This document shows positions 4,244-19,799 of a stretch of DNA of 64,000 nt, piece by piece; position 1 is the first letter of the stretch; the number at the start of each line of letters is the position of its first letter. The stretch spans positions 9,902-73,901 of the forward strand of contig NJBO01000003.1 in NCBI GenBank assembly GCA_005223075.1. Reading direction: 5' to 3'. Both the position numbers and the translations under genes were made by a program. Source of the DNA: a candidate division TA06 bacterium B3_TA06 (GTDB taxonomy: Bacteria > Hydrothermota > Tepidihabitantia > B3-TA06). The notes below the pieces were generated by a model. That model was not told the origin of the DNA, did not search any database, and saw only the letters and a program-made list of their open reading frames with translations.

Positions 4244-4248
4244 GTAAA

Positions 4249-4646: not shown

Positions 4647-4689
4647 CCCCCTCTTTAATTCTCCCCCATCAAGGGGGAGGTAATTATAT

Positions 4690-4730: not shown

Positions 4731-4737
4731 TGTCCTA

Positions 4738-4773
4738 GGGGTCCCCGCGGCGTTACGTAGTAACGGCGTGGGG
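4738..4773 (+). repeat. R1 hairpin repeat
   Basis: ggggtccccgcggcgttacgtagtaacggcgtgggg. Confidence 0.7.
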
Positions 4774-4780
4774 TAATAGT

Positions 4781-4864
4781 TCCCCCTCCCTTTGTGGACA
4801 GTGTGCCCCTTGGGGTGCTAACTTTACTGCACCCCATAGGGTAGGGGGATAAAGGGGGAGGGGA
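4781..4864 (-). repeat. R2 ~85-bp MITE-like element
   Basis: Reverse complement matches the copies at 10334-10428 and 59613-59697 (cccctccccctt.atccccctaccctatggggtgcagtaaa.ttggcaccccaaggggcac.ctgtccacaaagggagggggaac). Confidence 0.7.
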
Positions 4865-4977
4865 ATTTTAGACTGACGTACTATCATCTGTCTCCTCCCC
4901 CTTGATGGGGAAGGTGTTTTTCACCCCACGCGTTTACTTCGCAGCCGCGCGGGGAGCCCGAGGATAAAATCCATAGC

Positions 4978-5011
4978 TTCTGCGATCTTTTGCCCGCAGG
5001 GCAAAAGGAGC
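4978..5011 (-). repeat. R8 hairpin repeat (reverse orientation)
   Basis: cttctgcgatcttttgcccgcagggcaaaaggagc. Confidence 0.55.
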
Positions 5012-5071
5012 AATAGAACTACTTGACAACCCCTCAAGTTTGGCCTATATTATAACATAAACCAGCCCTTT

Positions 5072-5107
5072 GGGGTCCCCTCGCGAAAGCGAAGCTTTCG
5101 TGCGGGG
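5072..5107 (+). repeat. R1 hairpin repeat
   Basis: ggggtcccctcgcgaaagcgaagctttcgtgcgggg. Confidence 0.7.
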
Positions 5108-5125
5108 TAATGAAAGGAGGAAATC

Positions 5126-6529
5126 ATGAAGAGGTTTTCCCTAATCCTTATCCTGGCGAGTGTGGCGCTTGCAGTGATACCCACACAACTGGTCGCTGGC
5201 TGGTGGAGGACGTATGGAGGGGCAGAAAATGACGTAGGAAGATGCGTCAGGCAGACCCCTGATGGTGGCTACATAGTCCTTGGGCACACCTACTCTTTTC
5301 AAGGAGGCCCTATGTGGCTACTAAAGCTGGACCCCAACGGTGATACAGTTTGGACTAGACTCTATAACGGTAGCGCCGAGAATATCTACCTGACCAGCGA
5401 CGGGGGATATCTCATAGCGGGCGGGAAAAACGACAATCTCTGGTTGTTAAAGCTAAAAGAAAATGGGGACACTTCGTGGACTCGCACGTACGGAAAAGAT
5501 AGTTTGTTGGATTATGGTATTGCTGCATTCGAGACTGAAGATGGCGGATATATGCTTTTCGGAAGGACAGAATCCTTTGCAACGAATGAATGGGACGAAG
5601 ATGTTTGGATGTTGAGGACGGATGCCAAGGGAGATACTTTATGGACTAAGATCTACGGGGGAGAAGAAGATGACATACTTCGTTGTGTTCACCCCACTCA
5701 CCAAAAAGGAAAAGGCTACATAATGCTCGTTACGGCATATTCTTATATGGGTGATCAATTGGTTAAAGTCGACACGGCAGGCGAAGTACAATCTGAAGGT
5801 GAAGTATGGGTAGGTCTGCACACAGTATATATGAATGATGTTGTAAACGGCTATCTCGTCACATGTTGGGTTCATCCTAGTGGTGGGGAGTATAATATTT
5901 CCGATATCTATTTAGCCAAAACGGAATTTGGAAGCCTGGAACTTTATGAATGGGATGTATCTTGGGGGTCGGAATACTACGACTTAGGATATTACGTTGC
6001 ACTCACTAACGATTTTAGTTGTGTTGTCACCGGAGTATGGGGAGAAAATGGTCCTTCAGAAGGGGATCTTTTCCTGGCCAAAAGAGATCTTTGGGATGGC
6101 TGGGGGGTCTGGCAACGTATATATGGGGGTGACTCCTCCGAGTGGGGCAATTTCGTAGAACAAACAAGTGACGAAGGCTACATTGTGGTAGGGGGAACAG
6201 AATCATTCGGAGCAGGGGGAAGTGATATCTATATACTCAAAACTGACTCGTTAGGTTATGTCGGAGTAGAAGAGGAATCGGTTGCGGATAGGTGTGTTAC
6301 GGACTGGGATGCTACTCCCATCGGCCGCGAGATTATGCTGATGTATAAGGATAGGCCGGAAGGTTTCCACGCCGCTGTTTTCGACGAGTCGGGTCAAAAG
6401 GTTGACGAGTTGCACTCAACCCTGCACTCTGGCAGCGTGATGTGGGGTGAGGGGCACTCACCGGGTGTCTACTTCATTATGCCCACAGACGGGGAGTTGT
6501 CTAAACAGAAGGTGATCCTGATTCGATAG
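5126..6529 (+). CDS. Secreted repeat protein with T9SS-type C-terminal sorting domain
   Basis: 467 aa; SD gaaaggagg; N-terminal signal peptide; ~48-aa internal repeats (DGGY...G.T.SF...W.LKLD.NGDT.WT); C-terminus GVYFIMPTDGELSKQKVILIR resembles the CTD of the 50151-51796 gene. Confidence 0.6.
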   Translation: MKRFSLILILASVALAVIPTQLVAGWWRTYGGAENDVGRCVRQTPDGGYIVLGHTYSFQGGPMWLLKLDPNGDTVWTRLYNGSAENIYLTSDGGYLIAGGKNDNLWLLKLKENGDTSWTRTYGKDSLLDYGIAAFETEDGGYMLFGRTESFATNEWDEDVWMLRTDAKGDTLWTKIYGGEEDDILRCVHPTHQKGKGYIMLVTAYSYMGDQLVKVDTAGEVQSEGEVWVGLHTVYMNDVVNGYLVTCWVHPSGGEYNISDIYLAKTEFGSLELYEWDVSWGSEYYDLGYYVALTNDFSCVVTGVWGENGPSEGDLFLAKRDLWDGWGVWQRIYGGDSSEWGNFVEQTSDEGYIVVGGTESFGAGGSDIYILKTDSLGYVGVEEESVADRCVTDWDATPIGREIMLMYKDRPEGFHAAVFDESGQKVDELHSTLHSGSVMWGEGHSPGVYFIMPTDGELSKQKVILIR

Positions 6530-6779
6530 ACTAAAATGTGGCGCAGACTCTCCAGTCTGCGCGTTTATTCTCTCCATCAGAACAGGCTGGAGAGCCTGTT
6601 CCACAGTCTAAGAACCCGTTGACAGTGCTTGACATGCATGTCACTGCTTCCTATACTCCGAGTGTGAAAAACTTCCCTCGTAAAGTAATCACCCTCCTCT
6701 CTTATCCCCTACCCGACTGCCCCAGACGGTGGGATTAACAGGGCACGCTGTCCCGTTGAGGGAGGGGAAGATCAGAACT

Positions 6780-7040
6780 GAGCCAATCAAAGGTTGACTA
6801 TCGTATTGTATCTCCTCCTTGACCGGGGACGAAGTGCCCCCGTCGGGTAGAATTAAAGAGGGGGTGACTCCCCCTCCTTGGTGGAGGGGATCGACGTTTA
6901 CGTCGGGGGGAGGGGGAAAATATCCACCCCCACCCTACCCTCCCCCGTAAAGGGGGAGGTGAGTAACTGGTACTTGGTAGGATAAAAGAATACCCCTCCC
7001 TTGACGGGAGGGGATAAAGGGGAGGGTGATACCCTCCGGC
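6780..7040. repeat. Cluster of short C-run/G-run hairpins (CCTCCCCC-loop-GGGGGAGG type)
   Basis: agggggtgactccccct, cgacgtttacgtcg, cctcccccgtaaagggggagg, cccctcccttgacgggagggg; related hairpins near 4661-4690 and 10265-10330. Confidence 0.6.
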
Positions 7041-7062
7041 CGTTTCAGGAAGGAAATAACGG

Positions 7063-7090
7063 TTGACACCCGCGTCTGCCTACCTATACT
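7063..7090 (+). promoter_or_regulatory. Putative promoter TTGACA-N16-TATACT ending 6 nt before nadE start
   Basis: ttgaca 7063-7068, tatact 7085-7090; nadE GTG at 7097. Confidence 0.45.
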
Positions 7091-7096
7091 GCGCAT

Positions 7097-8776
7097 GTGG
7101 ATAGGTTCCCAAAGATAGCGCTGTGCCAGATCAACCCGACGGTGGGCGATCTACGCGGCAACGCGGCAAAGATAGTCGAATGGATCAAAAATGCCGAGGG
7201 ACAAGAGGCTGAGTTAATAGTCTTCCCTGAGCTTGTCCTTACCGGCTACCCGCCAAAAGATTTATTGCTCAAGACCCGCTTCCTTGAAGAACAGCGCCAG
7301 AGGCTTACCGAGATCGCTAAGATCACAGGTGATACTCCGGTCATCGTGGGCTGCGTGGATTTTACGCCTCGTAAGGAGGTGCGAGGCCAGAACCTATACG
7401 ACCTTTCGGCTCGAATAAGTGAGGGAAGAAGACTTTACAATGCCGCGGCAGTCCTTCGAGATGGCAAGGTTGAACGCTTCATTCATAAGAAATACCTACC
7501 TAATTATGACGTATTCGACGAAAAAAGGTACTTTGAAAGTCAATTCTGGCGCCAGAATCCTGTAATCGCCCTAAGGAACGGAACCAATGTGATGATTACT
7601 ATTTGCGAGGATATCTGGGTCGATAGAATTCTGAGTAAAATAAATTGGGCGAAATCGGACAAAGGTGCCGATCTCTTAGTAAACATCTCCGCCTCGCCCT
7701 TCTACGCCCGCAAGTTTCAAGCCAGGCTGGACTTATTGTCAACCAGAGCAAAGGAAGCCGGTCTGCCCCTTATCTACGTCAACATGATCGGCGGCCAGGA
7801 CGATTTGATCTTCGACGGTCGTAGCCTGGTGGTGGATGCAGGTGGCAGGATTGTAGGATTGGCCAAGGGATTTAAGGAGGATTTGTTTGTATACAATGGT
7901 GAGGATAAGGAAGTTAAACCTGAGATTGAGGAGGTGGGTGAAATCTGGCACGCGTTAACCCTGGGCCTGGGCGACTACGCTCATAAGAACAGCTTTTCAA
8001 AGGCTGTTCTCGGCGTCTCAGGGGGTATCGACTCGGCCCTAGTCGCCGCCTTAGCATCCGAGGCATTGGGGCCGGAGAACGTTCTGGGTCTGGTCATGCC
8101 CTCCAGCTACACCTCAAAACAGAGTCTCAAGGATGCTTTACTCCTATGCAACAACCTGGGCATCAAGACCGAACCCATATCCATAGACCCCCTGTTCGAG
8201 ACCTATCTTGCCACCCTGAAGGACCACTTCGCGGGCCAGGAACCCGACAACACCGAGCAGAACATCCAGGCGCGCATAAGGGGCAACCTTCTGATGGCAT
8301 TTTCCAACAAGTTCGGGTATCTGGTGCTGGCCACCGGCAACAAGTCTGAGCTTGCCGTGGGTTACGCAACTTTATATGGCGACATGTCAGGCGGTTTGGC
8401 TCCCATAGGTGACGTGCCCAAAACCACAGTCTATGCGCTTGCCCGCTGGCTCAACGAGCGTGAGCAGACCGACCAGATCCCCATCGGTATCCTGGAGCGC
8501 GCCCCATCTGCAGAGCTTGCGCCTGATCAAAAGGATGCCGACGACCTGCCGCCCTACGAGCTGCTGGATCGGGTGCTTGAGCTTTATATTGAAGAGAACC
8601 TATCCTCCAAGGAGATTATAGCTAAGGGATTCGATGAGGGACTGGTGCGCTCGATTATCAGCCGGATTGACCATTCCGAGCACAAACGTCGCCAGGCCGC
8701 ACCGGTATTGAAAATCACTCCAAGAGCATTCGGTTTTGGCAGAAGAATGCCGATAACGAATAGGTACGAGGGGTAG
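7097..8776 (+). CDS. nadE: Glutamine-dependent NAD+ synthetase
   Basis: 559 aa; N-terminal CN-hydrolase domain plus C-terminal NAD synthetase domain (GVSGGIDSALVAALA P-loop-like motif); GTG start. Confidence 0.9.
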   Translation: MDRFPKIALCQINPTVGDLRGNAAKIVEWIKNAEGQEAELIVFPELVLTGYPPKDLLLKTRFLEEQRQRLTEIAKITGDTPVIVGCVDFTPRKEVRGQNLYDLSARISEGRRLYNAAAVLRDGKVERFIHKKYLPNYDVFDEKRYFESQFWRQNPVIALRNGTNVMITICEDIWVDRILSKINWAKSDKGADLLVNISASPFYARKFQARLDLLSTRAKEAGLPLIYVNMIGGQDDLIFDGRSLVVDAGGRIVGLAKGFKEDLFVYNGEDKEVKPEIEEVGEIWHALTLGLGDYAHKNSFSKAVLGVSGGIDSALVAALASEALGPENVLGLVMPSSYTSKQSLKDALLLCNNLGIKTEPISIDPLFETYLATLKDHFAGQEPDNTEQNIQARIRGNLLMAFSNKFGYLVLATGNKSELAVGYATLYGDMSGGLAPIGDVPKTTVYALARWLNEREQTDQIPIGILERAPSAELAPDQKDADDLPPYELLDRVLELYIEENLSSKEIIAKGFDEGLVRSIISRIDHSEHKRRQAAPVLKITPRAFGFGRRMPITNRYEG

Positions 8777-8816
8777 TAGGTAATGATTAAAAGCTCTTCC
8801 AAAAAGGAGGAAGGCA

Positions 8817-9344
8817 ATGAAATTAGAATTGGCTCTTGAGGATGTTTCCCTTCCAGAGGGCATTCCAGTCGAAAGCCGTGAAGAATATCTCAAAAACAAT
8901 AAAGTCCTCATAGTATACTGTTGGTTAGAACCAACCGATTGGTCAACAATCAAGTATGAAACACAACAAAGAATCCTAGCTAGATTAAGTCTAGGTAATC
9001 AAACGCCCTATGAAACAGGATTTACAATGCAGGCCTTTCCAGCCCCGATCTACAGACTACTCGAAAACTATCTAAATGAAGAAAACTTAGGATTTATCTA
9101 TGGTGTAAAGGAATGGAAAATGGCTCCAATCTCAAGATTCAAGCTAGTAAGTATAGAAGAAAATACTCTGATTGGCAAATGCGTTCTTCCTCTATCCATA
9201 CGAGAAGACTTAGATTTTGACTGGAAAACACTTAAAGAGGGTATCGAAACGAGAATCAATAATTCTCTCGATGAAATTCGAGAAGGTGTAGTGAACTACG
9301 TAAGCACTTGTGACCACTTTAGTGATCTCTTCAGGAATGGTTGA
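8817..9344 (+). CDS. Hypothetical protein, compositionally atypical (AT-rich)
   Basis: 175-aa ORF with SD aaaggagga; markedly lower GC than flanking nadE and dedA-like genes; no recognisable motif. Confidence 0.4.
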   Translation: MKLELALEDVSLPEGIPVESREEYLKNNKVLIVYCWLEPTDWSTIKYETQQRILARLSLGNQTPYETGFTMQAFPAPIYRLLENYLNEENLGFIYGVKEWKMAPISRFKLVSIEENTLIGKCVLPLSIREDLDFDWKTLKEGIETRINNSLDEIREGVVNYVSTCDHFSDLFRNG

Positions 9345-9385
9345 CCACCTATTTATAACAATACTTTTGAGCCACACCTTATAGG

Positions 9386-9413
9386 TTGACCTTTCCCTAA
9401 CCTCCCCTATACT
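9386..9413 (+). promoter_or_regulatory. Putative promoter TTGACC-N16-TATACT, 9 nt before start codon
   Basis: ttgacc 9386-9391, tatact 9408-9413; ATG at 9423. Confidence 0.4.
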
Positions 9414-9422
9414 TACCCCCGC

Positions 9423-10172
9423 ATGAAGAAGACCCGACCGGGTGAGGTGATAATCCTTGCCTCAGGTGCCATGGTTCTTGCCGCACTAGTCGCTTTCGTG
9501 GTCTGGCAGTGGCCCCAGATTTCCCACCTTTTCTCAAACCCCACCGAGATCCGTTCTTACATTGCCTCGTTCGGCATCTGGGCACCGGTGATCTTCGTCG
9601 CCCTTTACGTCTTCCAGATCATCGTTGCCCCGATCCCTGGCACGCTCATGAACTTCGCAGGAGGGCTTATGTTCGGCTGGGGAGGCGGGGTAGGGCTTTC
9701 CTGGATCTCCTGCGTGATAGGTGCCGCGATCTCCATCTCCATCATGAGGGCGTTTGGCCGCTCGCTCATGCGCATCTTCATCTCCGAGGAGAAGCTGGAT
9801 AGGTTCGATAAATATGTCAGGACACGAGGATGGGCATATCTGTTCCTCCTCTACATCGTCCCCAACCCACTTGGCGACACGGTAAACTACATGTCCGCGC
9901 TTTCGGATATCAAGCTGTGGAAGCTTCTTCTGATGGTTGCTGTGGGCCGTATCCCCTCGCTCATCGTGGGTAGCTGGCTGGGCAAGCAGTCAATCCACTT
10001 CTCAACCATCCACTGGATAATTCTGGCTGCGGGGTTTGTAGGACTCCTGGTAGGTGTTTACCTTATCCACAAGCCACTTGAGAACCTGGCGATGAAGCTA
10101 TCGGCAAAGCTCTTGCCGCCACAAATCAACCCCAAGCGTTCGCCACGTGACCGCGCGTGGATGCCGAAATAA
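9423..10172 (+). CDS. TVP38/TMEM64 (DedA-superfamily) membrane protein
   Basis: 249 aa, multiple TM helices, motif pattern typical of DedA/TVP38 proteins (FQIIVAPIPGTLMNFAGGLMFGWGGG). Confidence 0.7.
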   Translation: MKKTRPGEVIILASGAMVLAALVAFVVWQWPQISHLFSNPTEIRSYIASFGIWAPVIFVALYVFQIIVAPIPGTLMNFAGGLMFGWGGGVGLSWISCVIGAAISISIMRAFGRSLMRIFISEEKLDRFDKYVRTRGWAYLFLLYIVPNPLGDTVNYMSALSDIKLWKLLLMVAVGRIPSLIVGSWLGKQSIHFSTIHWIILAAGFVGLLVGVYLIHKPLENLAMKLSAKLLPPQINPKRSPRDRAWMPK

Positions 10173-10333: not shown

Positions 10334-10428
10334 TACTTCTTTTCCCCTCCCCCTTTATCCCCCTACCCTATGGGGCGCAGTAAAATTGGCGCCCCAAGGG
10401 GCACGCTGTCCACACAGGGAGGGGGAAC
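10334..10428 (+). repeat. R2 ~85-bp MITE-like element
   Basis: cccctccccctttatccccctaccctatggggcgcagtaaaattggcgccccaaggggcacgctgtccacacagggagggggaac; nested inverted repeats. Confidence 0.7.
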
Positions 10429-10554
10429 TATTATCTCGAATAAGCAAACATTCCTAAATTCCCATTGCGAACTTTTCTGTGAAGGAGAAAAGGAGCATAA
10501 ATCCGCAGATTGGAACTCCTTTCAGTCGTTCTCCTTCGGAACGCAGATCCGTAG

Positions 10555-10581
10555 GGGCACGGCACGCCGTGCCCTCTTTTT
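10555..10581 (+). terminator. Intrinsic-terminator-like hairpin with T-tract
   Basis: gggcacggc-ac-gccgtgccc followed by tcttttta; the same stem appears at 23275-23298 without a T-tract. Confidence 0.45.
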
Positions 10582-10676
10582 ATCCGCAGATTACACAGAT
10601 TTAATTGATCTTACAACTCAGAAGTTCTACTCTCGTAATATTTAATCAGCGTAATCTGCGCAATCTGCGGTTTGAA
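10581..10676 (+). repeat. R6-related element (diverged copy of the 76-bp repeat at 17389-17571)
   Basis: ccgcagattacacagatt...aatcagcgtaatctgcgcaatctgcggttt; ends immediately upstream of the purM -35. Confidence 0.5.
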
Positions 10677-10685
10677 TGTATTTTC

Positions 10686-10713
10686 TTGACAACCCTCACA
10701 ACCGCCTTATGCT
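10686..10713 (+). promoter_or_regulatory. Putative promoter TTGACA-N16-TATGCT ending 6 nt before purM ATG
   Basis: ttgaca 10686-10691, tatgct 10708-10713, ATG 10720. Confidence 0.4.
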
Positions 10714-10719
10714 TCTGGT

Positions 10720-11718
10720 ATGGATTACCGTAAGGCAGGCGTGGATATCGCGACGCTGGATAGGATCAAGAAGAGGATGTCGAGAGCGGTGAAGCGAACG
10801 TTCACCGAGAACGTGGTTACCGAGTTCGGGCACTTCGGCGGAGGGTTTCGCCTGAAGGGGTATCGCAAGCCGGTGCTTGTGGCATCGACCGACAACATCG
10901 GCACCAAGGCCAAGGTCGCGAGACTGGCAGGCATCTACAATACAATTGGCGCGGATATGGTCAATCACTCGTCCAACGACATCATGTGCACTGGTGCTAC
11001 ACCTCTCTTCATACTGGACTATCTAGCGTTCACCAAGCTTGATGCAGACTACATCGCACAGATCGTAGAAGGATTTGCCAAGGCATGTAAGAAGGAGAAG
11101 GTGGTCCTCATCGGCGGCGAGACCGCCCAGCTTCCTGGTGTTCACAAACCTGGGGACTTCGACTTGTCGGCTACCGTGGTCGGGGTTATCGAAGAAGGTA
11201 AATTGATCGACGGTAGCTCCATCAAACCTGGTGATGTGGTCATAGGGCTGCGATCAACCGGTCTTCATACCAACGGCTACAGCCTGGCAAGGAAGGTGCT
11301 TCTTGAGGGCAACGCCCCCTTCCCTCTGGACGCTCTGGTCCCGGGGACCAAAAAGACGGTGGGCCAGGCGCTTCTGGCCGTGCACAAATCCTATCGGAAA
11401 GAGGTTGAGGGGGTGAAGCCGCTTCTTAAGGGCATCGCCCACATCACCGGCGGCGGGTTCCGCGGCAACATCTCCCGAATCCTGCCGGATGATCTCGACT
11501 GCGTGATCGAGCGCAAGAGCTGGAAGGTTCCTGCTGTCTTTAAACTTATCCAGGAGCGCGGCAATGTGACCGATACCGAGGCCTACCGGGTGTTCAACAT
11601 GGGGATAGGGATGGTGCTGTTCGTAAGGTCGAAGGACGCTGAGGGGGTACGCGAGAAGACACGTGGTATCCTCATCGGCAGGATAGTGAAAGGCAAAGGC
11701 AAAGTACATCCAGCATGA
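10720..11718 (+). CDS. purM: Phosphoribosylformylglycinamidine cyclo-ligase (AIR synthetase)
   Basis: 332 aa; MDYRKAGVDIA N-terminus and PurM-type fold motifs. Confidence 0.9.
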   Translation: MDYRKAGVDIATLDRIKKRMSRAVKRTFTENVVTEFGHFGGGFRLKGYRKPVLVASTDNIGTKAKVARLAGIYNTIGADMVNHSSNDIMCTGATPLFILDYLAFTKLDADYIAQIVEGFAKACKKEKVVLIGGETAQLPGVHKPGDFDLSATVVGVIEEGKLIDGSSIKPGDVVIGLRSTGLHTNGYSLARKVLLEGNAPFPLDALVPGTKKTVGQALLAVHKSYRKEVEGVKPLLKGIAHITGGGFRGNISRILPDDLDCVIERKSWKVPAVFKLIQERGNVTDTEAYRVFNMGIGMVLFVRSKDAEGVREKTRGILIGRIVKGKGKVHPA

Positions 11719-12116
11719 ACAATCAGCTTCAAAGGCTCACGAGACTCGCCGAAATCCTGGGACGCGATCGTCGTTACAAGCTTGAGGCTTATCTCTTCGT
11801 AATCGAGGCATTGCACCATGAGCTGAAACGTCTGGGGGTGGACTCTCCAGACAAACGGCGTCACCTCACGGCCAGAGAACTTCTTGAAGGGATCAGGACG
11901 CTGGGCTGGGAGCGATACGGCCGACTGGCAAAACAGGTATTCGAGAGCTGGGGGGTTCGCTCTACTCGAGACTTCGGGGAGATAGTGTTTAACCTTATCG
12001 AGGCCGGGGAGTTTACCAAGACCGACGAGGACCGCAAGGAAGATTTTGTGGGCGTCTTCGACTTCGACCGCGATCTGGTTAACGCCTATCCTCTAGGCGA
12101 TGCATCAAAAGATTGA
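11715..12116 (+). CDS. Hypothetical protein
   Basis: 133-aa ORF overlapping purM stop by 4 nt (translational coupling); no recognisable motif. Confidence 0.4.
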   Translation: MNNQLQRLTRLAEILGRDRRYKLEAYLFVIEALHHELKRLGVDSPDKRRHLTARELLEGIRTLGWERYGRLAKQVFESWGVRSTRDFGEIVFNLIEAGEFTKTDEDRKEDFVGVFDFDRDLVNAYPLGDASKD

Positions 12117-12169
12117 CGCCGGTTTGAAGTTCTTGCCACCACAAAAAACCGGCTGAGGTTGATTCAGGG

Positions 12170-14125
12170 ATGCACGCGAGAATAGAGGCGGAGTTCACAG
12201 GACGCGGCCCGATCCTCACCAACCTCCCCAGATATGAAAAGCGCGGTGGACAGCTGGAAATGGCATTAGCGGTGGCGGACGCGCTTACCTCAGAAACCAA
12301 CCTGATGGTTGAGGCGGGCACCGGCATCGGCAAAAGCTTTGCCTATCTTGTGCCCTTGATCTACTGGACCCTCAAGGAAGGGCGCAAGGCGGTCGTCGCC
12401 ACCGGAACCAAGGTTCTGCAGAACCAGCTTGTCGCAAAAGACCTGCCCTTCCTTGCAGATCACAGCGATATACCGTTTAAGTTCGAGGTCCTCTATGGTC
12501 AGGAGAATTTTTTCTGCCGCCGCAGGGCCGGGATGGTCGCTCAGTACGGTCTTTTTGACGATCCGGACCAGGCCTCAGAGCTTGAGCGGATTGCAACCTG
12601 GGCCAGTCAAGAAAGCGGTGTCTTCGAAGACTACCAAGAACCCATCTCCCACGGACTCAAGGGACAGATAAGCCGTCGCTCCGAGGCCTGCCTTCGCCGC
12701 AACTGCACCTACTACGTCGAGTGCCCTTACTACCGCAAGCGCCGGGCAGCCGAGCAGGCCGACATCATCGTGATCAACCACCACCTGTTCTTTGCCCATC
12801 TTGAGTCGGCGGGCAAGCTTCTGCCAGAGTTCGGTGCCACTGTATTCGACGAGGCGCAACGCCTTGAGCAGATAGCCGCCTCCTACTTCGGGGTACGCTT
12901 GACCTCGATCGGGCTTTCATTGCTTTGCTCCCGTATCTACAATCCCCGCCGCGGCTCGGGGATAGCCCCCAAGCTACCCGGCTTCCCCGCACTCAAACCC
13001 AAACTGCGGGCGCTCATCGAGGAGACCCGCTTGGCGGCTGACAACTTCTTTATGAACATAGCAGGTCTGCTCAAACCCTACGAGTACAAGAAGCGCATCC
13101 GGGTTCCGGAGTGCGTACCCAACGATCTTGAGCAGCCACTTGACGATCTTTCCGGGTTCTGCTTCGAGAAGGCCAAGGACACCGACGATGAGAATCTGTC
13201 TTTTGAACTGATTTCCTTGGGTGATCGGATATCGGTGGCTAAGGGCGCGGTGGTCAGTTTTCTGGACATGGCGGATGCGAACTCGGTATACTGGATAGAG
13301 GCAAGCGACCGTAACGACCGTGTTTCGATCCACTCGGCTTTGATTGACGTTTCTGAGATGATGCGCAACTCGGTGTGGAACCAGCCCTGGACCAACATCC
13401 TGACCTCGGCTACCCTGACCGTGGGCAAGCGGTTCGAGTTTACCTGCCAGAGGATAGGATTCAACGACAGGACATTGCTTCTTGGCTCGCCATTTGATTA
13501 CGAGCAGAACGCCCTGACCTACGTAGGGCACGATCTGGTATCGCCCAAGCATGAAGCGTGGGCCGAGCGCATGCCGCAAAGGGTCGGCGAACTGCTCAAA
13601 GTAAGCGAAGGTAGAGCATTAGTCCTATTCACCAGCTACGCAACGCTAAACAAAACCGTAGAGGCTCTGGAAGAAGAGGTCTCCAAGAAGCACACCGTGC
13701 TGGTGCAAGGGCGGACTACCCGGAATGTGCTTCTCGATGAGTTCCGCTTCGACACCTCATCGGTCTTATTCGCCACCACCTCGTTCTGGGAGGGTGTGGA
13801 TATCCCCGGCGAGTCGCTGGTACTTCTCGTGATCACGCGCCTTCCCTTCGAGGTTCCTGACGATCCGCGGGCTGAGGCGATCCTTGAAGGCTATCGCAGA
13901 CAGGGAAAGGAGCCTTTTACCACCTACCAGCTGCCTTTGTCTGTCTTGAGGTTCAGGCAGGGCATCGGAAGATTGATCCGCCGCGACGACGACTACGGGG
14001 TGATAGCGGTGCTGGACTCGAGGATTGTGAAGAAAGCGTATGGAAGATTATTCTTAGATTCGATGCCACCTGCGCCGGTCGTTTTCAACCTCTTAGAAGT
14101 CCAGAGATTCTTCGAAGATCATTAA
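12170..14125 (+). CDS. DinG/XPD-family ATP-dependent helicase with Fe-S cluster domain
   Basis: 651 aa; Walker A AGTGIGKS, four Cys in FFCRRR...CLRRNCTYYVECPYY, DEAQ-type box FDEAQ. Confidence 0.8.
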   Translation: MHARIEAEFTGRGPILTNLPRYEKRGGQLEMALAVADALTSETNLMVEAGTGIGKSFAYLVPLIYWTLKEGRKAVVATGTKVLQNQLVAKDLPFLADHSDIPFKFEVLYGQENFFCRRRAGMVAQYGLFDDPDQASELERIATWASQESGVFEDYQEPISHGLKGQISRRSEACLRRNCTYYVECPYYRKRRAAEQADIIVINHHLFFAHLESAGKLLPEFGATVFDEAQRLEQIAASYFGVRLTSIGLSLLCSRIYNPRRGSGIAPKLPGFPALKPKLRALIEETRLAADNFFMNIAGLLKPYEYKKRIRVPECVPNDLEQPLDDLSGFCFEKAKDTDDENLSFELISLGDRISVAKGAVVSFLDMADANSVYWIEASDRNDRVSIHSALIDVSEMMRNSVWNQPWTNILTSATLTVGKRFEFTCQRIGFNDRTLLLGSPFDYEQNALTYVGHDLVSPKHEAWAERMPQRVGELLKVSEGRALVLFTSYATLNKTVEALEEEVSKKHTVLVQGRTTRNVLLDEFRFDTSSVLFATTSFWEGVDIPGESLVLLVITRLPFEVPDDPRAEAILEGYRRQGKEPFTTYQLPLSVLRFRQGIGRLIRRDDDYGVIAVLDSRIVKKAYGRLFLDSMPPAPVVFNLLEVQRFFEDH

Positions 14126-14129
14126 AATC

Positions 14130-14165
14130 GGGGTCCCCGCGCGATAGTAAAGCGACCGCGTGGGG
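14130..14165 (+). repeat. R1 hairpin repeat
   Basis: ggggtccccgcgcgatagtaaagcgaccgcgtgggg, 5 nt after helicase stop. Confidence 0.7.
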
Positions 14166-14360
14166 CGTTAAATGTAGTGCGAACCTTCAGGTTCGCCAAG
14201 AAAGCAAGCGAGACTAAAGTCTCGCACTACATGCTAATCTGGAACAGGCAGGAGTGTCTGTTCTCTTAAATGTAATTGTATGGGCTGCTATTTGAAGTGC
14301 AGCAGTTTTCCAAAAGTCCGTTATCCTGTACCATATGCGGGCCGGTCTAAAGACCGGCCC
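14166..14360. repeat. REP-like hairpin cluster (TAAAG-loop family)
   Basis: atgtagtgcga...tcgcactacatg inverted repeat, gcgagactaaagtctcgc (14208-14225), gggccggtctaaagaccggccc (14339-14360); same family as hairpins around the IS200-like gene at 54790. Confidence 0.55.
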
Positions 14361-14404
14361 CTACGAAATCCCCCAAATATCAAGGCCCGATGTATTTCTC
14401 GTAG

Positions 14405-14432
14405 TTGACATCACCTCCCTTCATTATATTAT
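14405..14432 (+). promoter_or_regulatory. Putative promoter TTGACA-N16-TATTAT ending 5 nt before serS ATG (leaderless-type)
   Basis: ttgaca 14405-14410, tattat 14427-14432, ATG 14438; no SD present. Confidence 0.45.
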
Positions 14433-14437
14433 ACCCC

Positions 14438-15691
14438 ATGATTGATCCCAAGAAGATTCGCGAGAACCCTGATGAGATTCGCAAGCTTCTGGCACGCCGA
14501 AGGTGTCCGGTCTCGGTGGACGAAGTTCTGGCGGCAGACGAGGAGCGGAGAAAACTGCAGGCAGAACGTGATACGCTGAGGCACGATCTGAAAGAGGCGT
14601 CCGATGCCATCGGTCAGCTCAAGCGCGAGGGCAAAGATGCATCCGGGGTGATGACAAAAACCAAGAAGCTCTCTGCTAAGACCAAGGAGCTGGATGGTAA
14701 GCTCTCGGAGATCGAGGCACGCTTCGAAGAGTTACTCTGGCAGCTGCCCAACCTGCCCGATCCGGGCTCGCCGGATGAAGATACCGTACTAAGGACGTGG
14801 GGAGAAAAACCAGAATTCGACTTCCAACCCGCCGATCACGTAACCATCTGCGAGAGACTTGAGCTTTGCGACTTCCGCTACGCGGCATCTTACGCCGGTG
14901 CACGTTTTGCCGCCTATACAGGCGATGGCGCGCTCCTCCTGCGTGCGCTGGTAAACCTCTGCCTTGATCTGCACACCAGAGAACACGGTTACAAAGAGGT
15001 CTTCCCGCCGGTATTAGCCCGTGCTGAATCGGCAAACGCCGCCGGGCAGCTTTCCAAACTTGAGGATATGTACGCGCTCAAGGACGATCCACTTTATTTA
15101 ATCCCAACCTCGGAGACAGCACTCATCAACCTGCATATGGGGCAAGAGATCAAGGAAGAAGACTTACCTCTTAAATACACCGCCTACACCTCCTGCTTCC
15201 GCCGCGAGGCAGGAACCTACGGCACCCAGACCAAAGGTCTCTTCCGCATACATCAGTTCGAGAAGGTGGAGCTTGTGCAGTTCGCGCATCCTGAGCACTG
15301 GCACCAGGCTTTCGATGAAATCCTTTCTAATGCTGAGAAGGTCCTTCAGCTTCTCGAGCTACCCTACAGGGTTAAGGCGCTCTCCCCAACCGAGGCCGCG
15401 TTCCAGGCATCACTCACCTACGACATCGACGTGTGGGCTGCAGGTGCCGAAGATTGGCTAGAGGTCTCCTCGATCTCCAATTGCGCCGACTTCCAGGCAC
15501 GTCGCAACAAGACGCGGCTGAGGCTCGCAGACGGCAGCTTGATCCATCCACACATACTCAACGGTTCGGGCACCGCGTTCCCCAGGCTCATCATCGCAAT
15601 CGTCGAGAACTACCAGCAAGCGGACGGCAGCATAAAAGTGCCTGACGCTCTGCGTCCCTACATGGACGGCAAGGAGCATCTGGGCAGATGA
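14438..15691 (+). CDS. serS: Seryl-tRNA synthetase
   Basis: Start placed at ATG 14438 (MIDPKKIRENPDE, typical SerS N-terminus); ORF-track start 14405 is an upstream in-frame TTG lying in the promoter. Confidence 0.9.
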   Translation: MIDPKKIRENPDEIRKLLARRRCPVSVDEVLAADEERRKLQAERDTLRHDLKEASDAIGQLKREGKDASGVMTKTKKLSAKTKELDGKLSEIEARFEELLWQLPNLPDPGSPDEDTVLRTWGEKPEFDFQPADHVTICERLELCDFRYAASYAGARFAAYTGDGALLLRALVNLCLDLHTREHGYKEVFPPVLARAESANAAGQLSKLEDMYALKDDPLYLIPTSETALINLHMGQEIKEEDLPLKYTAYTSCFRREAGTYGTQTKGLFRIHQFEKVELVQFAHPEHWHQAFDEILSNAEKVLQLLELPYRVKALSPTEAAFQASLTYDIDVWAAGAEDWLEVSSISNCADFQARRNKTRLRLADGSLIHPHILNGSGTAFPRLIIAIVENYQQADGSIKVPDALRPYMDGKEHLGR

Positions 15692-16812
15692 GTGACACCC
15701 TCTTCCCGGAGTTCTCTCAAGAGGACGAGCGCTACATGTGCATGGCTTTAGCTCTGGCAGAGAAGGGAAGGGGTCAGGTTTCGCCCAATCCCATGGTAGG
15801 TGCGGTAATCGTGAAGGAAGGTGAGGTGGTTGGCAAAGGCTATCATTCCCGCTACGGAGGGCCTCACGCCGAGGCTATCGCTATCGCCGACGCCGGGCTG
15901 CGGGCGGACGGCGCGACCCTTTATGTGAATCTCGAACCGTGCGTACACTTCGGGCGTACGCCTCCATGTGTGGAGAAGATATCCAAAGCCCGTATCCTGA
16001 GGGTAGTGATCGCCATAAAAGACCCGGACAGGCTGGTTAACGGCAAAGGCATAGAGTACCTGCGCCGCTCACACATTCATGTGGATGTAGGGCTTTTAGA
16101 AGACGAAGCTCGCGCGTTGAACCAGGCCTATTTCAAGCACCGCGAGACGGGCTTGCCCTTGATTATCCTTAAGCTCGCTACCACACTCGACGGGAAGCTA
16201 GCTACTTCTACAGGCGACTCCAGGTGGATCACAGACGAGGAGGCGCGGCGTTACTCGCATCAACTGAGGACCGAGTCCGACGCGGTGATGGTAGGCATTG
16301 GAACCGTTTTGGCCGACAACCCCCAGCTTACCGTGAGGCTAGTAACCGGGCGCAATCCCCTCAAGGTGATACTCGACACCAAGCTTAAGATGCCTGCCGA
16401 TGCCAAGGTGTTCGATGAAGGCAAAACATTGATTTTCACATCACGCGAATCGCTTGCTCGAAGAGAAAGTTACGATGCGGCAAAGGTTTCGTTCGCAGCG
16501 GTCGACCTGACTGAAGATGGACGGCTGAATCTTAAAAAGGTGCTGAAAGAGCTGGGGAGAAGGCAGATCGCCCAGCTCCTGGTTGAAGGCGGCGGCATGC
16601 TTGCCTCCGAGCTGCTGCGTCAGGGCCTTGTGGATCGCTTCATCTGCTGCATCAACCTCTCGTTCCTCGGCAAAGGAATCGGCTACACCGACACCATTGA
16701 GTACTCCAACATCAACGAACGAATCTGTCTTAAAGACGTGAAGGTTTCCTGGCTGGGTAAAGATCTAAGACTCGAGGCGCGACCTTGTTTACCGGCATCA
16801 TCGAGGAAGTAG
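15688..16812 (+). CDS. ribD: Bifunctional riboflavin biosynthesis deaminase/reductase
   Basis: 374 aa; deaminase zinc motif HAE...PCVHFGRTPPC plus C-terminal reductase domain. Confidence 0.9.
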   Translation: MSDTLFPEFSQEDERYMCMALALAEKGRGQVSPNPMVGAVIVKEGEVVGKGYHSRYGGPHAEAIAIADAGLRADGATLYVNLEPCVHFGRTPPCVEKISKARILRVVIAIKDPDRLVNGKGIEYLRRSHIHVDVGLLEDEARALNQAYFKHRETGLPLIILKLATTLDGKLATSTGDSRWITDEEARRYSHQLRTESDAVMVGIGTVLADNPQLTVRLVTGRNPLKVILDTKLKMPADAKVFDEGKTLIFTSRESLARRESYDAAKVSFAAVDLTEDGRLNLKKVLKELGRRQIAQLLVEGGGMLASELLRQGLVDRFICCINLSFLGKGIGYTDTIEYSNINERICLKDVKVSWLGKDLRLEARPCLPASSRK

Positions 16813-17366
16813 GCACCCTTCGCAGGGTCACCAGTCGAGGAGATAACAAGATCCTTGAGATTGAAACGAGTTTGGAGCTGAGCGAGGGTGACAGCTTGGC
16901 GGTGAGCGGTGCGTGCCTGACTGTGATCAAGGTTGAACCAGGATTCCTGAAGGCAGAGGCGACAGGAGAAACGATCAAAAGGACGATACTCGGCGATCTG
17001 CACGCAGGCTCACGGATCAATCTGGAGAGGGCGCTGACATTGCAGAAGCCCTTGGGAGGCCATCTGGTGCAGGGGCACGTGGATGAGGTGGGTAAGGTTG
17101 CCGCGCTCAAGAAGACTCAAGACGCATGGCATATAGAGGTGGCGTTCTCACGCGAAGCGGATGGTCTGGTGGTTGATCAGGGCTCTGTTGCCATTGATGG
17201 TGTTAGCCTCACGGTGTTAAAAAAATTGCCTGGGCCAAAACTCACCGTTAACCTGATCCCAGAGACCCTGCGCAGAACCACCTTATCCGGGCTAAGGGTG
17301 GGCGATAAGGTGAACCTTGAGTTCGATATAATCGCCAAGTACGTGCGGGAACACACCCGCCCGTAA
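16785..17366 (+). CDS. ribE: Riboflavin synthase alpha subunit
   Basis: 193 aa, MFTGIIEEVGTL N-terminus; overlaps ribD; 3' end contains tandem cacccgcccgtaa duplication. Confidence 0.85.
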   Translation: MFTGIIEEVGTLRRVTSRGDNKILEIETSLELSEGDSLAVSGACLTVIKVEPGFLKAEATGETIKRTILGDLHAGSRINLERALTLQKPLGGHLVQGHVDEVGKVAALKKTQDAWHIEVAFSREADGLVVDQGSVAIDGVSLTVLKKLPGPKLTVNLIPETLRRTTLSGLRVGDKVNLEFDIIAKYVREHTRP

Positions 17367-17388
17367 CACCCGCCCGTAACACCCCTTA

Positions 17389-17464
17389 ACCGCAGATTAC
17401 GCCGATTTCGCCGATGGATCTGTTCTTTAATCCGTGTAATCTGCGAAATCTGTGGTTTATTCCT
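17389..17464 (+). repeat. R6 76-bp direct repeat, copy 1
   Basis: accgcagattacgccgatttcgccgatggat...aatccgtgtaatctgcgaaatctgtggtttattcct. Confidence 0.75.
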
Positions 17465-17495
17465 GCGGGAGCAAATCGCAAGGTAGATTCCTTTT

Positions 17496-17571
17496 ATCCG
17501 CGGATTACGCCGATTTCGCCGATGGATATATTCTTTAATCCGTGTAATCTGCGAAATCTGTGGTTTATTCC
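17496..17571 (+). repeat. R6 76-bp direct repeat, copy 2
   Basis: Near-identical to copy 1, 31-bp spacer between; ends 8 bp before the -35 at 17579. Confidence 0.75.
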
Positions 17572-17578
17572 TAAGCAC

Positions 17579-17606
17579 TTGACACGTTAAGAACGCCCGT
17601 TATACT
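17579..17606 (+). promoter_or_regulatory. Putative promoter TTGACA-N16-TATACT for the 17768-19799 operon
   Basis: ttgaca 17579-17584, tatact 17601-17606. Confidence 0.5.
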
Positions 17607-17767
17607 TGATTCCGGTTCTCTGGAGGCATCTGCGGACACGGGAACAAACGCACAAGCAACGCTAGTTGGAGCCTTAGCACAATGATACTAACTCCAATGA
17701 ATAAGCCGGCACCCCCTTGACAAGCGACAGTTTTGCCCTATTCTTAGGCATACAGAGGAGGATATGA

Positions 17768-18454
17768 ATGCCCAAAAAGGCCGATAAAGAACTGGAAAAG
17801 TTTAAGAAAGTCGTTGGTCTCCTGCGTCAGCTATACAAAGACGACGGGATGAAAATCCTTGTTCACCCTGACGGCGTTGATCTTAAAATTGAAGAAGGTG
17901 CATTGGAAAAATATATTAAGGGAATGGATTTGAAACTAGAAGAGGTGAAAAGTTCGATAGGGGAAATCTCCAAATTTCTTAACGTTACGAGAGGTAAGTA
18001 CGAAGAAATAGAAATATCTGTAGACATACTTTTAGGCCCCCCTTCTGAGGAGGAAACCGAAAAAGCCCGAAAAGAAAGGGGAGAAATACTAGAAAAGAAG
18101 ATAGGCATACTCAAAGAAATCGAACCGGAATGGGCCATTCGCAGAAGATCAAAAGCAAAACGGCGGGCGAAGACTCCCGTAGTTACGGAAGTCAGGTGGG
18201 AGATAAACCGGAGGCTGGCGGATGAACGTAAATCGAAACGAGAGTCGACCCCCTTTGCGACTATTGAATTCCGTTACTTAGAACCGCCTTTTGGTCCTTC
18301 CGAAGACCCTTTAGCAAGGATTCTATCACCGATTTTTGGAATCCATAGAATTCAAAAAAGTCTCTCCTTAGGGTGTGACAAGGAAGATATCCGTTATTTG
18401 ATAAGCGAACTCAAAAAAATAGAAGATGAGTTAGCAACCGGAGAATCCAAGTGA
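17768..18454 (+). CDS. Hypothetical protein (Lys/Glu-rich), gene 1 of AT-rich three-gene operon
   Basis: 228-aa ORF with SD gaggaggatatgaATG; low GC relative to surroundings. Confidence 0.5.
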   Translation: MPKKADKELEKFKKVVGLLRQLYKDDGMKILVHPDGVDLKIEEGALEKYIKGMDLKLEEVKSSIGEISKFLNVTRGKYEEIEISVDILLGPPSEEETEKARKERGEILEKKIGILKEIEPEWAIRRRSKAKRRAKTPVVTEVRWEINRRLADERKSKRESTPFATIEFRYLEPPFGPSEDPLARILSPIFGIHRIQKSLSLGCDKEDIRYLISELKKIEDELATGESK

Positions 18455-19041
18455 GATATCTAGAGGAAAGAAACATTGAAGAAATTTTCCGCATCATGCG
18501 GGGCATGTTTAACTTGCATTGGGGCCATTTAAAAGAACATGCGACTGAAATAGAAAACATTAAAAAAACGGTAAGTGAATTCCTTAAGTTAACGCCAGAG
18601 CGTGCGGAATTTGTTCATCAGCCATCACGAGAACACAAGGAAATAAGGTTTTTAGTGATTCTGAATGATTTACGACTCGCAGCAGAAACTACGCTGGAGT
18701 CTTTTGATGATCTTGGGCAACGACTAGATTGTTTCTGTAGGGTGCAAGAGAAGGCAGATTCTCTCTATGAGGCAGTAAGACATCTTGACTTACGCAGGGA
18801 TGTCCGGAAACAGATCGCGCTCACCATCAGAGACGCTGTGAGAAATATCTATGCTGAGGATCTTGAAAAAGAAAATCTCCAAGCACTGCTTAAGGCCATA
18901 AAGGTTGCAGCAAAGGAAGAACTTCATCCCTCAGATCATATGCAGGTATTAGAATTCCTTTATGAGGGCGACCTAGATGCATACCCGCATCTTGATGAAG
19001 ACCTTTCCAAAATAATTGAAGAAGAAAACCAAAACGAGTGA
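18451..19041 (+). CDS. Hypothetical protein, gene 2 of AT-rich operon
   Basis: 196 aa; start overlaps upstream stop by 4 nt. Confidence 0.5.
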   Translation: MRYLEERNIEEIFRIMRGMFNLHWGHLKEHATEIENIKKTVSEFLKLTPERAEFVHQPSREHKEIRFLVILNDLRLAAETTLESFDDLGQRLDCFCRVQEKADSLYEAVRHLDLRRDVRKQIALTIRDAVRNIYAEDLEKENLQALLKAIKVAAKEELHPSDHMQVLEFLYEGDLDAYPHLDEDLSKIIEEENQNE

Positions 19042-19799
19042 AGCTTTTTCTCGACACAACTGTCCAAATGAACAGATACCTGGGTAAACAAAAGACCAAG
19101 AAAAAAATACGCAAAAAAATAAACCAAAGCACATCGTGTACTGCATCGAATTACGTTCTTGGTGAATACAGATGGACAATTGTCAAGGATGCGGCAATCT
19201 TTTTGAATTTGTTGAAAAGCTCTAATTCGATCAATGAAGCCGTCAATAGACTACCCTCTTATAATAGAAGAACGGAGAGAGTAACGAAAAAAATCCTTGG
19301 GCCAGTAATGGAGGAGTTACGGAACAGTGCCCCTAACCGACCGATGTCCGAATTAAAAGAAGCATTGCAGGAACGTGTAGAATATCTTTTAGATTGGTTG
19401 CTGGATTATTACTTTTGGGTAAGGATAGATAGGGATTCATTTGTAAAATCACCTGAATGCGTAGATGCACGGATTGAACCTTCTGCATCCGAAAAAATTT
19501 CATGTCCTCTTACAAAACCACCTCCTTGTGACATCGAGGATTTCTGGAGCCGTCACAAGGCGGAACTAAAGTCACTCGCCCATAACCTTCCTGATAGCCT
19601 GAGTAAATTTAAATCTCCAGCGGCATCCATCTTGAGAAATCCTGAAAAGGCGCATGGTAAGAAATGTCGCTACATCTTGGGGGATGCAATAATTGCCACA
19701 CAATGTCCTAAAGGTTATCGAGTCTTTACAACCAACACCGGGGATTTCCAACCAATCTGTCAGGCGGTCGGAAAGTCCACTCCAATTGGCCTTAAATAA
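19038..19799 (+). CDS. PIN-like nuclease domain protein (putative), gene 3 of AT-rich operon
   Basis: 253 aa; N-terminal MKLFLDTTV and C-terminal LGDAIIATQ...FTTNTGDFQPI resemble the first and last acidic motifs of PIN domains; long Cys-containing insertion; start overlaps upstream stop. Confidence 0.45.
   Translation: MKLFLDTTVQMNRYLGKQKTKKKIRKKINQSTSCTASNYVLGEYRWTIVKDAAIFLNLLKSSNSINEAVNRLPSYNRRTERVTKKILGPVMEELRNSAPNRPMSELKEALQERVEYLLDWLLDYYFWVRIDRDSFVKSPECVDARIEPSASEKISCPLTKPPPCDIEDFWSRHKAELKSLAHNLPDSLSKFKSPAASILRNPEKAHGKKCRYILGDAIIATQCPKGYRVFTTNTGDFQPICQAVGKSTPIGLK

Follow-up and report, generated by a model that had tools for sequence, protein, structure and literature searches.

R6 is a palindromic intergenic repeat found in three copies in a 64,000-nt stretch (hereafter the window) of contig NJBO01000003.1 from candidate division TA06 bacterium B3_TA06. 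It belongs to a repeat family that is spread over many bacterial phyla and phage-like contigs. At orthologous sites in related lineages R6 is gained, lost and rearranged, and within the TA06/WOR-3 clade it stands at one fixed distance from independent promoters. We read R6 as the local member of a widespread family of foldback intergenic repeats, resembling repetitive extragenic palindromes (REPs) and MITEs (miniature inverted-repeat transposable elements). Its arms are built of 9-bp units, and the element would be non-autonomously mobile or recombining. We hold this reading with about even confidence.

The 12-mer GCGTAATCTGCG, allowing up to two mismatches, occurs 16 times in the window. The expectation is 4.4 ± 2.0, none of 100 shuffles reached 16, and 11 of the matches lie inside the three R6 copies (Table 1). 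The first-pass annotation had described two direct repeats (17389–17464 and 17496–17571) and a diverged third copy (10581–10676). Both descriptions were confirmed, the direct repeats differing at three positions. It had also seen in each copy two inverted half-sites, cgcagattacgc and gtaatctgcg, about 35 bp apart. The exact pair is present in copy A only and is replaced by cgcGgattacgc in copy B and by cgcagattacAc in copy C. The words stand 34 nt apart in A and B, and 55 nt apart in C. The half-sites are not isolated either: each arm consists of two or three tandem 9-bp units (CRCAGATTW) within a palindrome, imperfect, that spans the whole copy. The units of copy A are CCGCAGATT–ACGCCGATT–TCGCCGATG on the left and GTGTAATCTG–CGAAATCTG–TGG on the right, and all six window arms match CCRCAGATTNCRCMGATT.

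Copy A begins 23 nt past the ribE stop codon. The direct repeat that it forms with copy B runs through the T-rich tail TTTATTCCT, and the gap between the two copies is 42 nt (9-nt tail plus 33-nt spacer). In a ribE read-through transcript, this tail would put a U-rich run 3' of the hairpin. Every copy folds in silico into a single long hairpin on either strand, with energies of −19 to −36 kcal/mol and z values of −1.8 to −6.6. The RNA fold of copy A gave −31.5 kcal/mol (z −4.7), and the minus-strand fold of copy C gave −36.4 kcal/mol (z −6.6). No window match reached the gathering score in Rfam; up to E 10, only chance-level miRNA hairpins were returned.

We compared the syntenic loci of seven related lineages. 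The nearest purM homologues, 78–92% identical, come from metagenomes and from metagenome-assembled genomes named candidate division WOR-3. At the purM site, the window shares copy C with L246 (purM 81% identical), where the interior is the same and the right arm is one 9-mer shorter. R6 is missing there in L243 (purM 92%), L244 (84%), and L248 (79%), all three of which retain TTGACA...TATGCT. At the other site, 3' of ribE, the window carries two tandem R6 copies, promoter P1, a three-gene block with its own promoter, promoter P2, and an aminotransferase gene. L244 and L252 have one R6 with P1, the left arm in L252 being one unit shorter. L248 and L257 have one inverted R6 starting right at the ribE stop, followed by P2. 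The distant L262/L263 and L264 have neither R6 nor P1 and retain the three genes and P2. P1 was always accompanied by R6 (window, L244, L252), and P2 is conserved in the window without R6.

Among these relatives R6 appears and disappears, changes its number of 9-mers, is duplicated in tandem and is inverted, which does not support the first-pass view that it is not a mobile repeat. Between filled and empty alleles, homology restarts at the −35 or a few bases upstream, and no clean empty-site/filled-site pair was found at the compared orthologous loci. A metagenome scan with the ribE-type interior pattern returned, within the clade, the orthologous site only; outside the clade it picked up a small number of elements from other organisms, along with some matches that were due to chance or lay in coding sequence. 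R6 is thus a low-copy element in the clade that has had no recent burst, and we rejected a recent MITE burst in this lineage on the same result. Because the three-gene block is present in the distant relatives that have no R6, it is ancestral and did not enter at R6 as a cassette. The idea of R6 as a hotspot for a mobile three-gene cassette was rejected, the block standing at the same locus in those relatives.

The arms reach far beyond the clade. We scanned bacterial genomes (one per species) with the arm pattern and scanned viral contigs as well; the figures below are among the matches listed. Complete palindromes with R6-type arms and mostly unrelated interiors were found in at least about 45 fetched loci. 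They cover at least ten phyla, including Planctomycetota, Acidobacteriota, Verrucomicrobiota, Gemmatimonadota, Bacteroidota, and Chloroflexota; further carriers are Nitrospirota, Beta- and Gammaproteobacteria, Lentisphaerota, and others. Cultured carriers include Chryseobacterium spp., a Flavobacteriaceae strain, Persicobacter psychrovividus, Oligosphaera ethanolica DSM 24202, and Gemmatirosa kalamazoonensis KBS708. Solo arms also occur; 125 of the 193 have a third unit and many have the AT flank, so these matches are mostly genuine. In the viral contigs, palindromic pairs were present in 31 of 120 loci, and some contigs have four to six copies per ~12 kb. No copies turned up in 5,426 E. coli genomes or in about 50,000 records of cultured phages.

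Pooling the bacterial and viral loci gave 89–92 distinct palindromic elements of 47–313 nt. Many lengths equal 57+9n, the minimal form being three units, a ~12-nt loop and three units. The unit consensus is CRCAGATTW, and the outermost unit is usually AT-CCRCAGATT. The arms have two to four tandem units, and the facing arrays are separated by a loop or an unrelated insert of 3 to ~250 nt. Bases outside the search pattern are conserved as well: most flanks are AT and fewer are AA...TT, the right end reads ...CTGCGG-ATAA and becomes T-rich, and a third CRCAGAT unit is common. The 2-nt AT flank belongs to the palindrome. Co-variation between the two arms of an element is seen for the flank, for position 3 and for the third unit (none of 2000 shuffles reached the observed agreement), and the W position of the units shows none. 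This pattern fits slippage at the level of units, which scrambles their order, and the hairpin evidently tolerates regularly spaced mismatches at the W positions. Interiors are common to the copies in contigs L003, L016, L151, and L210 and unrelated in L068, L086, and L191, as they are between window copy C and copies A and B. In some contigs, therefore, whole elements were copied; elsewhere only the arms are common.

Bacterial elements lie in co-directional (20), convergent (3), and divergent (3) gaps. Often only 5–40 nt separate them from the stop and start codons on either side, too little for a promoter to fit. In Persicobacter pPP2, one copy sits between annotated convergent genes. Viral copies typically begin 9–16 nt past stop codons between co-directional genes, tailed-phage baseplate genes included. 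At +5 to +12, the outward flanks of the elements are rich in T. Where two elements enclose genes, these are ordinary ones, for ABC transporters, an antiporter, or phage baseplate proteins. The spread over many phyla and viral contigs, including convergent gaps and tight operon junctions that leave no place for a following promoter, is a further result at odds with the first-pass denial of mobility.

Two other identities of the arms were considered and rejected. By eye, the phage-type arrays hold no sigma-70 promoter, as no hexamer pair stands at a workable spacing. With its flank, the outer 9-mer reads TTATCC(G/A)CA and matches the DnaA box TTATCCACA at 8–9 of 9 positions. However, G predominates (~64–70%) at position 7, which is critical, and the inner units are poor matches, so DnaA boxes were rejected as the main explanation.

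Within the clade, the link to promoters is exact. The pattern TTGAC(A/T)-N16–18-TAnnnT occurs 23 times in the window, whereas composition-matched simulations gave 1.6 ± 1.1; of the 23 sites, 19 fall in the non-coding 17% of the window; therefore, the organism uses near-consensus sigma-70-type promoters. R6 stands upstream of only two of them. From the last G of ...CTGYGG to TTGACA there are exactly 15 nt at copies B and C, with different linkers. The first-pass statement that a TTGACA follows every copy closely therefore holds for B and C; copy A is followed by the 42-nt gap and then by copy B. At each site in the TA06/WOR-3 clade that holds R6, the outer arm stops 15 nt short of TTGACA at the purM, P1 and P2 promoters, whose linkers and −35/−10 spacers are unrelated. 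If placement is assumed to be free within a few tens of bases upstream, the chance of three independent junctions at an equal distance is roughly 1e-3 or less.

At P1, the proximal arm, linker and promoter are invariant in three lineages (the right arm of copy B is identical in L244 and L252), and the distal arm and loop vary. R6, linker, promoter and leader together are 95–100% identical between lineages, as compared with ~75–80% for coding DNA. This conserved block extends into the last ~90 nt of ribE, which makes recent recombination an alternative to selection.

The same phasing was looked for outside the clade. Among 342 arm ends, TTGACA (up to one mismatch) with a −10 at offset 15 was seen in TA06/WOR-3 loci only. 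A weak excess of TTGA at +15/16 appeared in 426 distinct non-clade flanks (9 compared with 2.8 expected), and these flanks held no full promoter at 15–17. In a scan of viral sequences, four two-unit arms had a TTGACA 5–35 nt beyond them, with gaps of 13, 11, 5, and 14 nt. We rejected a general 15-nt phasing, none having been seen outside the TA06/WOR-3 clade. The promoter link proposed in the first pass is real, but it is lineage-specific and dispensable for the promoters. Its interpretation as a transcription-factor module agrees with the 15-nt spacing at three promoters in the clade and disagrees with the retention of the purM and P2 promoters where R6 is missing. An UP-like element does not describe the arms, which are not A/T-rich.

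With these results in hand, we propose the following explanation. The CRCAGATTW units would be recognition sites for a protein, because the CAGATT core is conserved across phyla while W and the interiors drift; a purely structural hairpin role cannot explain this conservation. The likeliest binder may be a trans-acting recombinase or transposase, for which the arms could serve as multi-site terminal inverted repeats. Gain and loss, copying, presence in phages and the missing link to any gene are best fitted by a non-autonomous mobile or recombining element, and the lack of a target-site duplication points away from classical DDE cut-and-paste transposition. The number of units apparently changes through slippage. 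In the clade, R6 fills the interval from one transcription unit's end to the promoter that follows, and its outer arm stops in every case at about −51 relative to a strong sigma-70-type promoter. Since the promoters are independent of R6, it can be at most a modulator and not a promoter module. It might modulate as an upstream protein site, or as a U-tailed hairpin that terminates or insulates ribE read-through. For the ribE copies, such a terminator or insulator role at the RNA level is plausible from their GC-rich stem base followed by UUUAUU; it is not plausible for copy C, which lies between a separate terminator-like hairpin and a promoter.

Several results weigh against the reading of R6 as a mobile or recombining repeat. 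The shared 15-nt spacing at three junctions, together with the invariant proximal arm, is hard to explain by passive insertion, and the 95–100% identity could be a sign of functional constraint rather than of a recent exchange. Each genome of the clade has only one member of the ribE-type subfamily, which shows no recent burst. The viral contigs L140, L157, L125, and L240 carry one-stranded four-unit arrays beside ribosome-binding sites, an arrangement that looks regulatory. No recurrent protein family neighbours the elements at the bacterial loci or in the copy-rich viral contigs, and the ~260 fetched loci contained no long transposase-bearing element with these ends. When duplications of 3–9 nt at offsets 0–3 were sought, the flanks gave no excess of matches and thus no target-site duplication.

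Given the exact spacing and the invariant proximal arm, a regulatory reading is a serious rival for the TA06/WOR-3 clade. Here R6 would be an operator or activator array in which a host protein binds the units, the outer one covering −59 to −51, with class-I-like control or cooperative, omega-type spreading; the palindrome would simply be two inverted arrays. The constant distance at three unrelated promoters argues for it, as does the division at P1 into an invariant proximal arm, linker and promoter and a variable distal arm and loop. R6 and its promoter are, moreover, more conserved than coding DNA, the unit core is constant across phyla with W free, and the viral one-stranded arrays stand beside gene starts. 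However, the purM and P2 promoters, close to consensus as they stand, are conserved without R6; at purM, the proximal arm differs in unit number between the window and L246; and units of 9 bp do not keep step with the DNA helix. No promoter adjoins copy A or most family members, which lie in convergent gaps or 5–40 nt from genes, nor was the 15-nt phasing seen outside the clade. No candidate regulator is encoded nearby, and 21 of the 23 window promoters do without R6. On balance, we consider this operator array unlikely, although it deserves to be kept in view. A related proposal for the spacing dispenses with regulation altogether: the insertion machinery would select a fixed distance upstream of the −35 or of bound RNA polymerase. 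It would account for three independent junctions that are equally spaced and have unrelated linkers, and for the resumption of filled/empty homology at or just upstream of the −35. Yet the phasing is confined to one clade, no clean empty/filled pair was found, and the 15-nt linker moves with R6 rather than belonging to the host sequence, a poor fit to simple insertion. We regard such promoter targeting as very improbable.

A role at the RNA level would make R6 a hairpin at the 3' end of the upstream gene, acting as terminator, mRNA stabiliser or RNase III site, and its proximity to promoters would reflect compact packing of terminator and promoter. The strong predicted folds agree with this, as do the positions of copy A downstream of ribE and of the L248 and L257 elements directly at the stop. 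The GC-rich stem base is followed by TTTATT (A and B) or TTTGAAT (C), phage and bacterial elements begin 9–16 nt past stops with T-rich outward flanks at +5 to +12, and other hairpin repeat families in this genome also adjoin promoters. Structure alone, though, leaves an identical 9-mer across phyla unexplained, and the W positions neither co-vary nor avoid regular mismatches. Copy C, which follows a separate canonical terminator and precedes a promoter, is probably untranscribed. Most family members are flanked by AT and have no U-run, one-stranded arrays exist that have no partner arm, and neither strand is consistently the more stable. The RNA hairpin as the main explanation is therefore quite improbable in our estimate. 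Returning to the mobile, protein-addressed repeat, we can also imagine a broader version of it. The CRCAGATTW arrays would be the sites of a single multi-phylum protein family exploited by phages, forming a superfamily of protein-addressed palindromic repeats distinct from the GTAG/CGTC REPs, and they would have been recruited at −51 in TA06/WOR-3 for control or insulation. This extension is speculative, and we think it rather unlikely to hold in full.

The closest known kinds of element are REPs with their mosaic and paired forms (bacterial interspersed mosaic elements, BIMEs; REP doublets forming hairpins, REPINs) and bacterial MITEs. Like the former, R6 elements are short imperfect intergenic palindromes, often just past stop codons, that occur singly, in tandem or in alternating orientation, without target-site duplication, in mosaics with other repeat modules that vary between relatives; roles in termination, mRNA stability and protein binding have been proposed for REPs as well. 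REPs are defined by a conserved GTAG or CGTC tetranucleotide at the palindrome end (PMC3733652). The R6 family, in contrast, has no such head: 94 arms start with AT-CCRCAG, and they are arrays of 9-bp tandem units rather than a single GC-rich stem. REPs are also recognised by a high copy number (more than ~100 per genome) and by a flanked gene for a REP-associated tyrosine transposase (RAYT), the enzyme that mobilises them. R6 copy number is low, with two sites in the 64 kb of the window, its arm sequence is conserved across phyla, and no link to RAYT was found among the neighbouring genes. The TIRYT arms (GGGGWSAS) described in PMC3733652 are unrelated to those of R6.

MITEs (Correia/NEMIS, ERIC, vMITEs) share with R6 the terminal inverted repeats, a variable interior, a length of 50–300 bp, the intergenic position, the occurrence in both phages and hosts, and the ability to influence neighbouring genes. 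Inverted repeats of at least 10–15 bp around a non-coding interior of 50–800 bp, by which MITEs are recognised, are found in the R6 family. Unlike MITEs, it shows no target-site duplication and, in the ~260 fetched loci, no parent insertion sequence with the same ends; its arms span at least ten phyla, and they are internally repetitive in the manner of eukaryotic foldback elements. A census of 1.4 million MITEs found 97.4% of them to be genus-specific (PMC11602168). Our literature search by sequence word, beyond which much of the literature lies, returned primer coincidences only, and the REP survey (PMC3733652) does not contain the motif. Provisionally, the family is apparently undescribed.

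Three further systems resemble R6 in part. Integron attC sites are similarly long imperfect palindromes in which the ends are conserved and the centre varies; they lie right after the stop codons of co-directional genes, tolerate regular mismatches and occur in many phyla. They differ in their RYYYAAC/GTTRRRY cores, the R6 ends being (A)(T/A)CCRCAGATT ... AATCTGYGG(A/T)(T). We rejected attC: these cores are missing from R6, no integrase was found, and R6 is flanked by housekeeping genes, syntenic in relatives, rather than by an array of promoterless cassettes beside an intI gene. Ribbon-helix-helix proteins bind comparable arrays: omega of pSM19035 on 7-bp heptads, MetJ on 8-bp metboxes, and ParR on parC. 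By analogy, contiguous 7–11 bp units, direct or inverted, variable in number and upstream of promoters, may be likened to R6; the difference is that no cognate protein lies near R6 and most family members are away from promoters. With UP elements and class I activator sites, R6 shares the position at about −51 to −77 of near-consensus promoters and, in the clade, a fixed phasing. It differs in the mixed GC content of its arms, an UP element being an A/T-rich tract at −40 to −60 within the promoter, in the 9-bp period, and in that the promoters are conserved with unrelated upstream sequence.

Small palindromic repeats such as REPs and MITEs are normally genus- or species-specific, and the conservation of the R6 arms across phyla is unusual. 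The same arms in many phyla and in phage-like contigs imply either a broadly distributed mobilising or binding protein or a very effective horizontal spread, possibly phage-borne. The cultured carriers make the binding partner experimentally accessible. The −51 placement at three promoters in one clade offers a simple system for studying how a repeat is co-opted for gene control. From the translation of the units, the family is also a likely source of spurious small open reading frames (ORFs), and likewise of breaks in metagenome assemblies.

Table 1. R6 copies, adjoining promoters and associated features (window coordinates; linkers listed by promoter carry the lineages in which they occur).
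Feature	Position	Strand	Description
Lone CCGCAGATT unit	10503–10511	+	~80 nt upstream of copy C; in a segment replacing 21 nt of the alleles without R6
GTAG-headed hairpin	10550–10575	+	GC-rich, GTAGGGGCACGGCACGCCGTGCCC and T-run; directly upstream of copy C
R6 copy C	10584–10670	none	87-nt palindrome with its own interior; left arm CCGCAGATTACACAGATTTAATTGATC, right arm ..TTAATCAGCGTAATCTGCGCAATCTGCGG
Linker, copy C to purM −35	10671–10685	+	TTTGAATGTATTTTC, 15 nt
purM promoter	10686–10713	+	TTGACA-N16-TATGCT; kept in relatives with and without R6
R6 copy A	17390–17455	none	66-nt imperfect palindrome; left arm CCGCAGATTACGCCGATTTCGCCGATGGAT, right arm ATCCGTGTAATCTGCGAAATCTGTGG
Tail of copy A	17456–17464	+	TTTATTCCT, T-rich, 9 nt; duplicated along with the palindrome
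Spacer, copy A tail to copy B	17465–17497	none	33 nt; missing in single-copy relatives
R6 copy B	17498–17563	none	66-nt palindrome; 3 differences from copy A
Linker, copy B to P1 −35	17564–17578	+	TTTATTCCTAAGCAC, 15 nt; invariant in L244 and L252
P1 promoter	17579–17606	+	TTGACA-N16-TATACT; 11/12 consensus matches
P1 leader start	17607–17650	+	..ttctctggaggcatctgcggacacgggaaca..; conserved; holds a lone ATCTGCGG unit; block gained with R6
R6-to-promoter linker, purM			TTTGAATGTATWTTC; window, L246
R6-to-promoter linker, P1			TTTATTCCTAAGCAC; window, L244, L252
R6-to-promoter linker, P2			ATTATTATAAAAGGC; L248, L257

The GTAG-headed hairpin upstream of copy C is a module separate from it and, judged by its sequence, looks like a REP as well as an intrinsic terminator. 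A similar GTAG hairpin is enclosed by two CAGATT arms in the viral locus L154 (5116–5205). Together with the neighbour of copy C, this nesting indicates that GTAG hairpins and CAGATT repeats occur nested or adjacent. Downstream of copy C, the purM mRNA is probably leaderless, because only 6 nt separate the −10 from the ATG at 10720 and there is no discernible Shine-Dalgarno sequence (10708–10722).

At the ribE site, the 3' end of ribE (17355–17385) carries a 9-nt tandem repeat, CCCGTAACA, that includes the TAA stop and varies from about two to six copies among relatives. The three genes downstream (17768–19799) overlap, code for 228, 196, and 253 aa, and have their own promoter at 17717. The first-pass annotation had named them a PIN operon driven by the promoter next to R6. 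That label is unsupported: they have no match in four profile libraries (Pfam, NCBIfam, PADLOC, PHROGs). Moreover, P1 lies ~190 nt upstream of the first gene. A search of 5.8 billion proteins found only three homologues of the first gene. In relatives the three genes occupy the same locus at 55–64% identity; in others they are lost.

The related phage-like contigs L140, L157, L125, and L240 have 7–11 arrays each, of the form TTTCC-CGCAGATTACGCGGATT-N3-GCGCAGATTTCGCAGATT (e.g., L140, minus strand, 2717–9598). The arrays share one DNA strand though the flanking genes diverge, and each directly abuts the ribosome-binding site and start codon of a gene, whichever way that gene points. They recall the start-associated sequences of cluster K mycobacteriophages.

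Other repeats are common in the window. A second hairpin family, TGCGATCTTTT-loop-AAAAGGAGCA (also TGCGATCTTTT...AAAGGAGCA), was found at 4680–4722, 4973–5022, 10462–10503, 34484–34525, 34643–34675, and 63347–63389. It stops 8–10 nt before the −35 at 5023, at 63340 (minus strand), and at the purM promoter of L243, L244, and L248, and is a second repeat family phased with promoters. As several promoters without R6 are preceded by other hairpin repeats, a hairpin abutting a promoter is general in these intergenic regions. The dispersed hairpin family GGGGTCCCCGCG...TGGGGTA occurs at 4392–4430, 4738–4775, 14124–14174, 34439–34489, and 59527–59565, and a 94-nt element, TACCCTATGGGG..., at 4771–4865, 10342–10433, and 59612–59705, in copies 93–95% identical. 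Both families vary between relatives at purM, so this intergenic DNA is a BIME-like mosaic. Nested hairpins of the type GGAGTGCAACAACACGGTTGTTGCA...CACTCCA cluster at 44161–45412, and this module also lies upstream of purM in L243 and L246.

Two larger arrangements complete the picture of repeats. Between 26200 and 33000 there are at least 12 tandem repeats of ~510–520 bp, 60–95% identical, apparently small ORFs that are paralogous; after each comes a junction of ~76 nt, conserved and ending in a GC hairpin (..GGCATAATAGAAACCAACCAGGGGGCGGGG..). Tandem arrays of six to nine 11-bp units resembling AAAAGCTGGTC stand ~53 kb apart at 4412–4504 and 57372–57475 and have an iteron-like look.

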